DNA of 64,000 nucleotides from a virus (taxonomy: Duplodnaviria; Heunggongvirae; Uroviricota; Caudoviricetes), in IMG/VR virus record IMGVR_UViG_3300045988_163275, positions 32,001-96,000 of that record; one strand, written 5' to 3'. Made by a program: the position numbers and the translations under genes. How positions within the stretch are numbered: the first letter of the stretch is position 1; each line of letters opens with the position of its first letter. This document shows positions 2,476-61,503 of this stretch, in pieces. The notes below the pieces were generated by a model. The model did no database searches, was not told where the DNA came from, and saw only the letters and a program-made list of their open reading frames with translations.

Positions 2476-2871
2476 TTAAGCGAATACGCTTTCAGGGACA
2501 ATGGTGTCGATCTTTTCGCCGGAGATTATTCGCAGACCGTGTTGTCCCATCCAGGTACTATTGGTATTTAAACTCGATGTATAAACCGCATCGACCTTTT
2601 TCATCAAATTTTCAAACAACGTCTGATCCGCGCCACGGAAATGAGTTTCCAGTTTTATCAGTAAAGGGTCAGAAGCATTACTGATGCTTTGGTAACGCAC
2701 CGAATATTTCCCCTTTGTCGCCTCGCCGGTGCGAGTTAAGGTACTGGTGTGAACTTCTTCGCCGGAGGCATTATCGCGTAGCACAATTGTAATTTTTGCA
2801 ACTTTGTCTCCATTTTCCGTCTCTGATGCATAATACATATCCAGGGTCAGATTTTCGCGTTTAACGGTCAT
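2476..2871 (-). CDS. hypothetical protein (131 aa)
   Basis: ATG at 2869-2871 with AAGGAGAG SD 5 nt upstream. Confidence 0.55.
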   Translation of the reverse strand: MTVKRENLTLDMYYASETENGDKVAKITIVLRDNASGEEVHTSTLTRTGEATKGKYSVRYQSISNASDPLLIKLETHFRGADQTLFENLMKKVDAVYTSSLNTNSTWMGQHGLRIISGEKIDTIVPESVFA

Positions 2872-2908
2872 TTCACTCTCCTTAGTGTTTAATTTTTAAT
2901 TTTATTAT

Positions 2909-2927
2909 CATAAGTAAGTACTTACAA
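2909..2927. promoter_or_regulatory. palindromic operator-like motif B copy (TAAGTAAGTACTTAC)
   Basis: palindrome core TAAGTACTTA, 38 nt upstream of ATG 2871. Confidence 0.5.
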
Positions 2928-2935
2928 TACAAAAA

Positions 2936-2962
2936 AGCCCCGAAGGATTGGCGGGGCTGTCG
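2936..2962 (-). terminator. rho-independent terminator
   Basis: minus strand GCCCCG-loop-CGGGGC followed by TTTTTT, just 3' of stop of 2993..3304. Confidence 0.6.
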
Positions 2963-2992
2963 TACATTCGACTAACTACTGCTTGCACATGT

Positions 2993-3304
2993 TTAAGCTA
3001 CCGCCTGAACAGACGCTCGTTGGATCTCTTGTTGGGCGACACGGTTGGCTTCCATCAGCGCCAGTTCAAGCTGGTCCTCTGGCCACATTTTCTGGACCGA
3101 CATCCACCCTCTTCCACGCTGGCGACGAACTACCATCACATAGCGCGTAAAATTGCCCGCGTCGAAGGTAATGGCTTTTTCACGAAACAGACGGATAGAA
3201 GTCCCATTCGCTACGATATCCAGCAATGTGAGATGCCCCATTAAGGTTGGTTTTTCTTTTCTATCCTGGCCTTCAGCAAGACCCAGCACCAATGAAGTAT
3301 TCAT
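2993..3304 (-). CDS. hypothetical protein (103 aa)
   Basis: ATG at 3302-3304 with GGAG SD; track ORF extends to 3334 over motif A. Confidence 0.5.
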   Translation of the reverse strand: MNTSLVLGLAEGQDRKEKPTLMGHLTLLDIVANGTSIRLFREKAITFDAGNFTRYVMVVRRQRGRGWMSVQKMWPEDQLELALMEANRVAQQEIQRASVQAVA

Positions 3305-31996: not shown

Positions 31997-32013
31997 TATT
32001 TTTGCTGTTAATA

Positions 32014-57493: not shown

Positions 57494-57513
57494 TACTGTA
57501 TATATAAACAGTA
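57494..57513. promoter_or_regulatory. LexA (SOS) box
   Basis: TACTGTATATATAAACAGTA = CTGT-N8-ACAG with AT-rich spacer, ~26 bp upstream of recombinase ATG. Confidence 0.65.
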
Positions 57514-57640
57514 TATTAGGCATAAGTTTTTGTATGATCAACCATAAAATAGCCTGTTTTATACAATGATTCCATACTTAATAGGTATGGAATCATTTAA
57601 GGACGGAAATTTAAATTCTGAGATTTTATTAGCGTGATTG

Positions 57641-58051
57641 TCACGGATTAGTGAGAGCTTGAAATGCGGCGGCGTATGCAGCGATATCGGCCATAATTTT
57701 TGGATCTTTCGCAAACTGATGTGCGTTGTTAGGGAAGATTGCCAATAGGCTATACACATCTTGGAAATGTGCATGTTGACTGTAAACGAGTGCGCGGTCG
57801 CTTGTGCAATTGAATCTGTTGCGGCTGCTGGTTCGTTCTTGCTTCGTGAGCAAGAGATGAACGTGATAAACGCGGGAGGACACAATAGCACCCGGAGCCG
57901 TATACGGGCCATCTTTCCCGAATACGGTTGGGTACATGCCTTGTTTAAGCGACGTGAAATCGTTGAGTAACGTGATCTTTAAATCAGGCTTTATATCGAA
58001 GGTCGGCTGTAAAAATTGGGCGTAACTATCACTGTTCCATGTGACCTTCAT
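57641..58051 (-). CDS. YafO-like toxin candidate
   Basis: VFGKDGPY ... RVYHVHLL ... ALVYSQHA ... LLAIFPNNAHQFAKDPKIMADIAAYAAAFQ follows the YafO pattern as recalled; SD inside 3' end of upstream gene. Confidence 0.5.
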   Translation of the reverse strand: MKVTWNSDSYAQFLQPTFDIKPDLKITLLNDFTSLKQGMYPTVFGKDGPYTAPGAIVSSRVYHVHLLLTKQERTSSRNRFNCTSDRALVYSQHAHFQDVYSLLAIFPNNAHQFAKDPKIMADIAAYAAAFQALTNP

Positions 58052-58060
58052 CGATCAACC

Positions 58061-58669
58061 TCAATGGAATGAGAAGTTGGCGAAGACGTCCTCATCGATG
58101 AGGCCAGTCTGCGATTCGATGACGTCTACGTCGTTAAAACACTGATTTAAAATCAATAGCAGATCAGAGATAGCCAAACGATACTCAGTTACAGAATCGC
58201 TCAGGCGTTTCAAGTAGGGATGAGGTTGCTCAGAGTCACGAATCAACTTGTTAACGAATCCCTCCAAACCACGAATGGTCAGGTCAACGTTCTTCAATTC
58301 TTCGTAACGGCTTTCACCGAAGCTGGTGCGAATCTTTTCCGCTTTCCATCCAGAGATGGCATGAGCCAGGCGAACGTGTTTCGCCGTCAATTCTGCGAGC
58401 TTGCTTTCGATCTCCGCCAGCTGCGCCGCATCGCTGTTCTCTTGAACAGGTATACCTGCGGTTCTCACATAGGCTTGTTCTTTGAATCCAGCAAATTTCG
58501 CAGAGTGCTTCACCGTGCCACGGAAGCGTCGATAGCCAAGCGGCTCAATAAAGGCACGCCCAAATTTAGCTTTAGGCTTTGCAGTTGAAAAGCGCGAGGC
58601 GTTAGAGGTCACAGTAGCAAGGGCATTGCTAATGACACTCATATCTTCCAGGCAATTTTCTAAACGCAT
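58061..58669 (-). CDS. hypothetical protein (202 aa); possible antitoxin partner
   Basis: ATG with AAGAGG SD; ends 10 nt before toxin ATG. Confidence 0.45.
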   Translation of the reverse strand: MRLENCLEDMSVISNALATVTSNASRFSTAKPKAKFGRAFIEPLGYRRFRGTVKHSAKFAGFKEQAYVRTAGIPVQENSDAAQLAEIESKLAELTAKHVRLAHAISGWKAEKIRTSFGESRYEELKNVDLTIRGLEGFVNKLIRDSEQPHPYLKRLSDSVTEYRLAISDLLLILNQCFNDVDVIESQTGLIDEDVFANFSFH

Positions 58670-58764
58670 AAAACCTCTTAACTACTCAATGGCTCGTAAC
58701 TAAGTGTACGCTGTGTTGATGAAAGCGACAAATAATAAACGGCCCCAAAAGGAGCCGTATTGTA

Positions 58765-59010
58765 TTACAGAGTGCTCGCAAAAGCAGCAAATTCTGTATA
58801 GCCGCCGATAGGATCACCATTAACGAACACCTGCGGTATGGTTTCCACCGGTTTGCCAACCAGGTCGCTCAACTTCTCTTTGTCGATGCCGGCAGACACA
58901 ATATCGATGTATTCGTAATCGCCAAAGCCGTGGCCGTGCAGCTGCTTCGCCAGCTCGACCGCACGTTTGCAGTATGAGCAATTATCGCGTCCGTAGATAA
59001 CGACCTTCAT
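58765..59010 (-). CDS. glutaredoxin-like protein
   Basis: VVIYGRDNCSYCKRAVELAK with CxxC site and C-terminal VFVNGDPIGGYTEF; ATG overlaps PhoH-like stop. Confidence 0.8.
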   Translation of the reverse strand: MKVVIYGRDNCSYCKRAVELAKQLHGHGFGDYEYIDIVSAGIDKEKLSDLVGKPVETIPQVFVNGDPIGGYTEFAAFASTL

Positions 59011-59630
59011 CACTTCGCCTCGTGCAGCTGCTGCTTGAGAAGATAGCCTTCCAGCGGCCAGATTTTGGCAATCGCGTTCTGACGTGTAATTTTACGCCCG
59101 ATCTCCGGGTCAAAGTTCTCCGGGCTGGCGCACGCAGACTCGCCGGTTACGGTAAAGCCGTTCTTGGCCACCTCTGGCTTTAAGCAATATTCAAGGAATG
59201 AGCCACCCAAACGCTTCTGTAGCACGTCATAGACGGGCCGGAAGAACGGAGCGAACTTCTCGCTCATGTCGCCCGGAAGGAAGCCCAGATCTTCTTCTGC
59301 TTGCAATACCGGACGCGTCACGATGATCTTCCCGACTTCCTTATCCAGCAGACGCTGCGCTGCGACGGCAGCAGCCAGGTAGGTTTTGCCGCAGCCGGCT
59401 TCACCAGTGGCGAACGTCAGAGATTTGGTGTCGAGGGAGATAAGATAGTGGGCCTGGGCCTCGTTTCGCGCTTCGATGGGAGAGTTGTCGCGTTTAGGTT
59501 TTGGTGGCAGAGCAGGGGCGACAGCCAGCTCGTCAACGATGATTGTGTCAATTTCGTAGCCGTGGATGCGTGGCTTTGACTTCAGTGCCTGACGAGCTGC
59601 GCGACGCGCCTGTTTACGTTTGTTTCCCAT
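59010..59630 (-). CDS. PhoH-like P-loop ATPase lacking the usual C-terminal half
   Basis: FATGEAGCGKTYLAAAVAAQ ... IIVTRPVLQAEEDLGFLPGDMSEKFAPFFRPVYD; ATG 59628-59630 with AAAGGA SD. Confidence 0.65.
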   Translation of the reverse strand: MGNKRKQARRAARQALKSKPRIHGYEIDTIIVDELAVAPALPPKPKRDNSPIEARNEAQAHYLISLDTKSLTFATGEAGCGKTYLAAAVAAQRLLDKEVGKIIVTRPVLQAEEDLGFLPGDMSEKFAPFFRPVYDVLQKRLGGSFLEYCLKPEVAKNGFTVTGESACASPENFDPEIGRKITRQNAIAKIWPLEGYLLKQQLHEAK

Positions 59631-59676
59631 ATTGAGTCCTTTCAAGTGAGTAACTGAAAGAACTATACCGACAAAT

Positions 59677-59697
59677 AATAGGTAAGTCATTACCTAT
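59677..59697. promoter_or_regulatory. palindromic motif B copy
   Basis: AATAGGTAAGTCATTACCTAT 47 nt upstream of PhoH-like ATG. Confidence 0.5.
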
Positions 59698-59743: not shown

Positions 59744-60532
59744 TCACGGCAGTTTTGCTCTAATTTCGAGTAATTTCTGTGCCGTTATGCTGATTTCATA
59801 CGCCAAATCTTGTGTTTGGTTAATGATTCCGTAATAGCGCTCAACCTGATCAGGATAAAAACGTCTGATATGGGGGATATCGATATAATCATAATACCCA
59901 AGCCCTCCAGCAGAATGTTCTCTGAACAGCGCCCAAAAGTTGTTCACTTTCCCGACCAACTCCATACGGATTGTTTCTAAAACAACATCATTGAAGCTGT
60001 AAAAGGGGTTATGGGCAATATTATCAAATGCGTAGAGAGGGTCGGTAATGTCGGTGCTAACTTTTGCCCGGAACTGTTCGCTCTTCAGAATTTGGAGGTA
60101 GTTGTAATTAAAAATATCAGTAATGGCTTTTAAAACACCGACATCTCTTTCTGAGTAATTGTTCTGACTCACCTGGTGCGTCATCTGAAGCAGAAGAGAT
60201 TGTTGAGTTTCGGCCAGCTGCTTCCAGTTTTTCAATTGCTCAACGGAATAGATAGTGTAGTCAGAGTCAATGAGTGCGCCATGTGAACGACACATCCATA
60301 TACCGTTATCAATCGAGCTTCGCTGTTCTGGGGTCAAGCTAGGATCATATCTCGGTCCACCCGGCGCTGCTGCTGTAATATGTGCCGCGATACCATTATT
60401 AATCCTGCCGTTTGTATCACTGCTATCTGGGCCGACTGTTACCTGGTTGCATCCAAGAAAAGAGCACTTCCAGCCTACGCGTTCGGCTAGTGTTCGCTTC
60501 ACCGATGGAGAAAAATCATCTCTGTTACTCAC
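59744..60532 (-). CDS. HNH nuclease-domain protein with C-terminal region of unknown function
   Basis: KCSFLGCNQ ... IAAHITAAAPGGPRY ... NGIWMCRSHGALID; probable GTG start with GAGGT SD. Confidence 0.55.
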   Translation of the reverse strand: MSNRDDFSPSVKRTLAERVGWKCSFLGCNQVTVGPDSSDTNGRINNGIAAHITAAAPGGPRYDPSLTPEQRSSIDNGIWMCRSHGALIDSDYTIYSVEQLKNWKQLAETQQSLLLQMTHQVSQNNYSERDVGVLKAITDIFNYNYLQILKSEQFRAKVSTDITDPLYAFDNIAHNPFYSFNDVVLETIRMELVGKVNNFWALFREHSAGGLGYYDYIDIPHIRRFYPDQVERYYGIINQTQDLAYEISITAQKLLEIRAKLP

Positions 60533-60571
60533 GTTTACCTCGCTGTGTTTAAACAATCTTATGGCTATTTG

Positions 60572-61428: not shown

Positions 61429-61503
61429 TGGCGATGGTGGGTGGACTCGAACCACCGACCAGTTGATTAACAGTCAACCGCTCTACCACTGAGCTACACC
61501 ATC
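61429..61503 (-). tRNA. tRNA-Asn (anticodon GTT), CCA encoded
   Basis: hand-folded cloverleaf: acceptor GATGGTG/CACCATC, anticodon stem GTTGA/TCAAC with loop CTGTTAA, T-arm GGTGGTTCGAGTCCACC; differs from E. coli tRNA-Asn. Confidence 0.85.

Follow-up and report, generated by a model that had tools for sequence, protein, structure and literature searches.

The locus considered here lies within a 64,000-nucleotide stretch of viral DNA (positions 32,001 to 96,000 of IMG/VR record IMGVR_UViG_3300045988_163275), hereafter the window, and consists of two adjacent genes on the minus strand. The first (58669-58061) begins with an ATG and encodes a protein of 202 aa, a presumed antitoxin that is referred to below as the partner; its delineation draws on this start codon, a match to PHROG 13546, alignments of homologues and an AF2 model. 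The second (58051-57641) encodes a YafO-family toxin of 136 aa, assigned by a Pfam match and by homology to YafO of E. coli K-12. Both open reading frames are present where an earlier note on this DNA had placed them. That note also described a gap of 10 nt between the genes, with the Shine-Dalgarno (SD) sequence of the toxin inside the 3′ end of the partner gene. The close spacing holds and the exact figure does not, the spacer being 9 nt, and the placement of the SD is essentially right: a GAGG segment on the minus strand (58062-58059) overlaps the TGA stop codon of the partner, 7 nt before the toxin ATG. Given this overlap and distance, translational coupling of the two genes is likely. The two open reading frames share one reading frame, and their organization, in which adjacent co-directional genes are separated by a short spacer and the presumed antitoxin comes first, is the generic layout of type II toxin-antitoxin systems.

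Upstream of the partner gene are several candidate expression signals. The partner ATG is preceded by an SD sequence of its own, AAGAGG (58679-58674). Farther upstream, a terminator-like hairpin follows the grxA gene (58758-58739, minus strand), comprising an 8-bp stem with six GC pairs and then a T-rich tail; the cassette thus has its own upstream region, apart from grxA. Within this region resides a putative sigma-70 promoter (58731-58703, minus strand), in which TTGTCG (58731-58726) and TACACT (58708-58703) are separated by a 17-nt spacer. Promoter function is inferred from the sequence itself; the element agrees with the consensus at 8 of 12 positions, a score under the threshold of the promoter scan. 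It is conserved in related phage-plasmids, in a chromosomal copy of the locus in Erwinia, and 5′ of a different YafO pair in plasmid pEh27_1. A 10-nt direct repeat (TAGTTACGAG/TAGTTAAGAG) was considered as an operator and is not supported, being absent from the corresponding upstream regions in Klebsiella, Erwinia, Pluralibacter and Brenneria. Alternative antitoxins acting in cis were also sought: comparison with Rfam antitoxin RNAs returned sub-threshold matches alone (for example sok, with 24 bits against a cutoff of 59), and the search revealed neither tandem repeats nor, downstream, a credible small ORF.

YafO is one of the less well understood mRNA interferases of E. coli. The earlier note had recognized the 136-aa protein as a member of this type, and profile comparison agrees: toxin residues 36-131 align to positions 5-100 of the 101 positions of PF13957 (YafO_toxin) with a score of 79.7 bits, where the gathering threshold is 25, and the protein is 35% identical to K-12 YafO over 110 aa. 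With the NCBIfam equivalog model for YafO (NF007377), the toxin scores 54.5 bits, below the cutoff of 153. It is therefore regarded as a family member rather than an orthologue, and biochemical details established for E. coli YafO may not transfer to it. An alignment of 11 sequences, comprising toxins of the window type, those of three further clades from plasmids or prophages, and YafO of K-12, contains six invariant residues (K36, G45, D47, H65, Y90 and H111), all of them shared by the K-12 protein, and two that are nearly invariant across the four clades (H63 and S84). The toxin is basic (pI 9.0), and its AF2 model, of medium confidence (pLDDT 60), suggests a possible HigB/RelE-like fold, with a sequence identity of 6-9% to those proteins. 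A sequence search of the PDB gave no significant match for the toxin or for the 202-aa partner, and no solved YafO structure was found. E. coli YafO is a ribosome-associated enzyme that cleaves mRNA (reviewed in PMC7781912), and by analogy the same activity would be expected of the toxin in the window. The cuts made by the E. coli enzyme fall 11-13 nt downstream of start codons (PMC7781912). The window toxin itself is ordinary.

The partner is predicted to comprise four parts: an N-terminal helix (residues 4-27), a disordered basic linker (28-74), a three-helix core that contains an RGLEG motif (75-179), and an acidic C-terminal tail (180-202) ending in FANFSFH. The AF2 model is of medium confidence (pLDDT 62) and includes a short helix within the tail (193-198); 47 residues are predicted to be disordered. 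The linker carries a charge of +8.5 and the tail one of -6. Alignments of homologues fit this layout, with a conserved N-terminal helix and core and a hypervariable linker, which is missing altogether from the homologue in Pluralibacter (pI 4.55). Conservation is highest, even among the most divergent homologues, in the last ~15 residues, where the consensus is [IV][DE]xxxFxxFxFH.

Database comparisons place the partner in a small family. PHROG 13546, which has no annotated function, matches it at full length (E 5.2e-123, residues 1-202 against 1-201 of 201), and there is no match in Pfam, NCBIfam or PADLOC; Pfam still returns nothing at E≤1 across 20 family members. The family amounts to 27 clusters at 90% identity, and an exhaustive HMM search of 1.84 billion representatives recovered 11 partner-family proteins, about half of them fragments. 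No paper characterizing the partner turned up in a search of the literature, nor did one that characterizes a YafO module of SSU5, pHCM2 or pKPHS1 elements. The partner represents a real, conserved and undescribed protein family.

To our knowledge, YafN is the sole characterized antitoxin of YafO. In the K-12 YafN-YafO pair, as in the window, the antitoxin gene lies upstream of the toxin gene and close to it. The antitoxins themselves differ, YafN being a 97-aa protein of the Phd/YefM fold and the partner a 202-aa protein predicted to be a helical bundle. The partner has neither the Phd/YefM N-terminal domain nor the size of ~80-100 aa that goes with it, and it is predicted to be all-helical; BLASTP yields no alignment with YafN, and HMMs of the partner family score YafN no higher than shuffled sequences. 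The description of the upstream protein in the earlier note as much larger than antitoxins of the YefM/YafN type, and without a recognizable motif, is sound. Nor do Pfam or fold searches reveal an HTH, RHH, AbrB or Phd domain in the partner, the fold searches leading to generic helical bundles alone. Most type II antitoxins, though not all, carry a DNA-binding domain with which they autoregulate their operon. The genetic settings are also distinct, as the K-12 pair belongs to the dinB/SOS operon and the cassette in the window is mobile cargo of a phage-plasmid with a putative promoter of its own.

A looser resemblance to YafN was noticed on reading the two C-termini. The partner tail (...IDEDVFANFSFH, window 58061-58132) and the end of K-12 YafN (...TDDDFNDFKE, locus L002, 1206-1499) both contain an acidic run followed by F-x-x-F, seen as DEDVFANF in the former and DDDFNDF in the latter. 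This could represent a common YafO-binding motif, or it could be coincidence.

The toxin and its upstream gene were proposed in the earlier note to be a paired unit, and the distribution of the two genes bears this out. Phage-plasmids carry the pair, and so do chromosomes in five settings that are unrelated to one another and to the phage-plasmid, for a total of at least six genomic contexts. In Erwinia sp. JUb26 it resides between genes for an AsnC regulator and an HNH protein, in Pluralibacter gergoviae it adjoins amn, and chromosomal pairs are also found in Brenneria goodwinii, Samsonia erythrinae and Pectobacterium brasiliense; in Acerihabitans, the partner and toxin genes are both truncated. 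Every full-length partner homologue that was sampled has a YafO gene 9-12 nt downstream, save for one on a viral contig that has no toxin gene, and the spacers among homologous pairs are either 9-12 nt or a 10-nt overlap. Across IMG/VR, the toxin accompanies the partner in 25 of 26 contigs, and the spacer is exactly 9 nt in all 25 that have both genes. The plasmids of PLSDB tell much the same story at ≥60% identity, with 312 records for the partner and 313 for the toxin (~1:1).

Similar regularity is evident in how the two genes have diverged. Both are conserved down to ~40-50% identity with length and spacing kept, and their dN/dS values (0.17-0.21 for the partner and 0.09-0.25 for the toxin) indicate purifying selection on each; these are thus not chance ORFs. 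Divergence is faster in the partner than in the toxin (mean dN ratio 1.27) and tightly correlated between the two (r = 0.95). Faster divergence of the antitoxin, correlated with that of its toxin, is a pattern typical of toxin-antitoxin pairs, and so are the basic toxin, the acidic partner tail and the stretch of predicted disorder in the partner. The viral contig that breaks the pairing (L052, IMGVR_UViG_3300045988_161936, 2501-3106) encodes an intact partner of 201 aa that is followed by unrelated ORFs, the YafO gene being missing, and this partner looks like an orphan antitoxin. Retention of the partner and loss of the toxin is the direction expected if the former protects against the latter, and no toxin of the window clade was found without a partner. 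Together, co-inheritance in at least six contexts, near-equal numbers on plasmids, spacing of 9-12 nt and correlated divergence support the view that partner and toxin form one functional module.

The element that carries this module has a phage-plasmid backbone of the SSU5/pHCM2/pKPHS1 type. A 123-kb E. coli plasmid shares 99.8% identity with the region, and many non-mobilisable IncFIB plasmids of ~110 kb share 92-98%, their hosts being Enterobacter, Citrobacter, Salmonella, Klebsiella and E. coli. The matches also include entries classed as phages on deposition, for example Escherichia phage CMS-2020a and Klebsiella phage pJN2-26. Around the cassette are genes for DnaE, an AAA ATPase, a CobT-like protein, a tyrosine recombinase, GrxA and PhoH, as well as a tRNA-Asn. 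Two further features of this neighborhood were noted. The phoH gene (59010-59690) is truncated and joined in frame to the C-terminus of a gene resembling that for N4 Gp49, ~760 bp having been deleted relative to pHCM2 and pEh27_1, with the junction at window position 59164. A 270-aa ORF (59744-60556) has no Pfam hit, and its N-terminal ~130 residues match the PADLOC models for the HNH-endonuclease effectors PDC-M68A and SduA (best E 1.4e-22); situated near the tRNA-Asn (61429-61503), this HNH-like ORF is a possible defence gene.

On its downstream side, the cassette is bordered by a lox-like 13-7-13 inverted repeat (AATGATTCCATAC-N7-GTATGGAATCATT, 57565-57597, unstranded), which marks the left boundary of a segment whose content changes among related elements. 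The 13-bp arms are essentially invariant across seven aligned elements, one of which has a single mismatch, and the 7-bp spacer varies by lineage. Homology of the backbone ends at 57596-57599, the outer edge of the 33-bp repeat, in pMT1, pHCM2, pGS04EC-1 and Kpn BA4656; in pEh27_1 it extends ~26 nt past the repeat, to 57623. It picks up again at 58690 in pEh27_1 and at 58738 in pHCM2. Between these limits, pHCM2 carries an unrelated 163-aa ORF on the opposite strand and Yersinia pestis pMT1 carries the caf1 F1-capsule operon. The corresponding segment of Enterobacter hormaechei pEh27_1 (locus L019, 4141-5072, against window 57598-58690) encodes a different YafO toxin, 34% identical to that of the window, together with a 174-aa partner. 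This pair sits behind the same promoter sequence as the window pair, up to ...TAGTTACGAGCCA. The sharing of the promoter as far as ...TAGTTACGAGCCA, followed by a different pair, implies that one cassette has replaced another, the breakpoint lying ~25 nt ahead of the start codon of the partner gene. By these alignments, then, the cassette evidently sits in a replaceable cargo slot beside the lox-like site. Such variability agrees with the reported placement of toxin-antitoxin systems in the shell genome of SSU5-like elements (PMC7969092).

Adjoining the slot, and outside the toxin-antitoxin pair, is the gene for the tyrosine recombinase (57468-56365, minus strand). The lox-like site may be the target of this enzyme and the site of cargo exchange. 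A separate observation concerns the control of the recombinase gene: a near-consensus LexA (SOS) box (TACTGTATATATAAACAGTA, window 57494-57513), the only one in the window, resides 26 nt upstream of its start codon and departs from the 20-nt consensus at one position. Conservation of its core, CTGT-N8-ACAG, extends to pMT1, pHCM2 and five further related plasmids, which suggests that the recombinase is under SOS control.

Comparisons with other YafO clades show that a large upstream protein is not peculiar to the window. In each locus sampled (pEh27_1, a Klebsiella IncFIB/IncL-M plasmid, Enterobacter and E. coli IncFIB plasmids, a Pantoea ananatis prophage tail cluster and a metagenomic chromosome), a “hypothetical protein” of 174-190 aa is encoded directly 5′ of the toxin. 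The distant plasmid-borne toxins in this sample have such partners without exception (4/4, 174-189 aa), all apparently of the same superfamily. The pairing had been called non-canonical in the earlier note, a term that fits in relation to YafN-YafO of E. coli K-12 but not in general, since a long partner accompanies all four of these distant toxins. A long unannotated partner appears instead to be the common companion of mobile YafO toxins, rather than an exceptional one.

These long partners have several features in common with that of the window. Two of them, WP_049006169 (from K. pneumoniae pRIVM_C019719_1) and WP_058652518 (from E. hormaechei pEh27_1), illustrate the type: they too are encoded upstream of a YafO toxin, at 174-190 aa, and show the same layout and the motif L-x-[IL]-R-G-L-E-G, but they are <30% identical to the window partner and have other C-terminal motifs (..SGRFH and ..AAKW[RH]). 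The Klebsiella-type family, represented by alignment A5, likewise combines a conserved N-terminal helix, a variable linker and an RGLEG core, in which ELQLRGLEG takes the place of LTIRGLEG in the window partner, and its members also end in an aromatic residue followed by His. The proposed relationship rests on HMM-versus-shuffle tests (2000 shuffles), because direct profile-profile comparison of the window family with A5 is weak (hhalign probability 12%). Scored with the A5 HMM, members of the window family reach 10.6-12.7 bits, whereas the highest-scoring shuffle has 8.6; in the reciprocal test with the window-family HMM, the Klebsiella partner obtains 21.2 bits and the best shuffle 10.5. A third subfamily of partners obtains 10.2-26.4 bits with the A5 HMM, and YafN remains at background. 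A YafO-specific superfamily of long partner proteins with three subfamilies is thus probable, though not proven. The unrelated 163-aa ORF of pHCM2 (locus L018, 4229-4720) scores 7.3 bits with the window-partner HMM, a value reached by 1 of 2000 shuffles; this score is probably due to chance.

Unknown YafO partners have been encountered before in a computational survey. A SLING survey of E. coli lists 13 partner clusters for 6 YafO_toxin clusters, 8% of them known (PMC10790755), so that such partners had already been noted, although not described. The SLING partners come without a family definition, architecture or function (PMC10790755), and they may include the partner from the window.

Overall, the locus is probably a type II toxin-antitoxin cassette in which a YafO-family RNase toxin is paired with a 202-aa protein antitoxin of an undescribed family. 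The gene pair, the family of the toxin, the lack of a known antitoxin domain, co-inheritance and purifying selection are observed; toxicity, neutralization, the toxin-binding region, lability and biological role are inferred. The toxin would act as an endoribonuclease of the RelE/HigB fold that blocks translation by cutting mRNA on the ribosome, and the partner would be its cognate antitoxin, made from the transcript of the toxin and probably translationally coupled to it. Neutralization would most likely take place through direct binding, for which the best candidate contact is the conserved acidic and aromatic C-terminal tail (IDEDVFANFSFH); this tail and the disordered linker are indirect cues to binding and lability. 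Upon loss of the element, decay of the partner, the more labile of the two proteins, would leave the toxin to arrest the cell, which would stabilize the plasmid-prophage, and the same logic could abort infection by other phages. Confidence in this reading is tempered by the lack of a DNA-binding domain in the partner and by the medium quality of the structural models.

Among known systems, a parallel to such a cassette would be Phd-Doc of phage-plasmid P1, a type II addiction cassette that is likewise carried on a phage maintained as a plasmid (PMC7969092), although its toxin and antitoxin families are unrelated to the pair in the window. The HigB/RelE ribosome-dependent mRNA interferases, for their part, differ from the toxin in sequence (6-9% identity), and their HigA-type (HTH) antitoxins are unrelated to the partner.

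A second possibility retains the same proteins and the same neutralization but holds that the cassette was selected for anti-phage abortive infection or for superinfection exclusion, instead of plasmid addiction, with the large partner serving as a sensor that releases YafO upon infection. We consider it unlikely as the primary role, although several features of the setting lean toward it. The cassette occupies a variable cargo slot outside the replication and partition core, the ORF at 59744-60556 with its matches to PADLOC HNH effector models is nearby, and homologous pairs are found as morons in the tail cluster of a Pantoea prophage and also at sites in chromosomes, where plasmid addiction has no bearing; the partner is, moreover, far larger than a simple neutralizing peptide needs to be. 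However, neither protein matches any PADLOC model, and the partner resembles no known sensor domain. A defensive function is, in any case, compatible with addiction, as many toxin-antitoxin systems do both.

It is also conceivable, although improbable, that the 202-aa protein is not an antitoxin at all. It might instead be a co-transcribed regulator or, by way of its basic linker, a binder of ribosomes or nucleic acids, with the YafO homologue either non-toxic or neutralized in trans by a host antitoxin of the Phd/YefM type. The generic helical-bundle matches and the lack of any known antitoxin or DNA-binding domain would suit such a protein, as would the strongly basic character of the linker (+8.5), and some papers do regard YafO genes of this kind as orphans. 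Yet the linker is dispensable, to judge from its absence in the Pluralibacter homologue, and a bystander role sits poorly with strict co-inheritance at fixed spacing across Klebsiella, Erwinia, Brenneria and Pectobacterium. The sole decoupled case (L052) retains the partner and not the toxin, and the putative catalytic residues of the toxin are kept under purifying selection. Least probable is an enzymatic or indirect counteraction of the toxin, in the style of type IV to type VII systems and in place of stoichiometric binding. The unusual size of the partner and its lack of a DNA-binding domain would fit such a mechanism, but the fold prediction is a simple bundle of helices in which neither a catalytic motif nor a nucleotide-binding signature is seen, and the most conserved element of the partner is a short C-terminal peptide typical of binding tails.

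Returning to the type II cassette with a binding antitoxin, a more far-reaching version can be formulated, which we regard as speculative and doubtful as a whole. In that version, the long YafO partners would be an unrecognized antitoxin superfamily unlike the classical type II kind, having no DNA-binding domain and using a C-terminal aromatic-His tail to plug the RNase cleft. The helical bundle would then be the sensor of a trigger, making the pair a phage-defence switch, and such cassettes would be exchanged between phage-plasmids at the lox-like site by an SOS-controlled tyrosine recombinase.

The observations on other clades suggest that most mobile YafO toxins in the Enterobacterales pair with an unannotated partner of ~170-200 aa rather than with YafN. 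Because these partners are unannotated, annotation pipelines and several papers report the corresponding toxins as orphan or incomplete. The cassette itself is present on >300 sequenced plasmids of ~110 kb, including the pKPHS1-type phage-plasmids of clinical Klebsiella pneumoniae. If functional, it would help these elements, among them some with resistance genes, to persist. Definition of the partner family would improve the annotation of toxin-antitoxin systems and would provide a tractable system in which inhibition of the YafO RNase can be studied.
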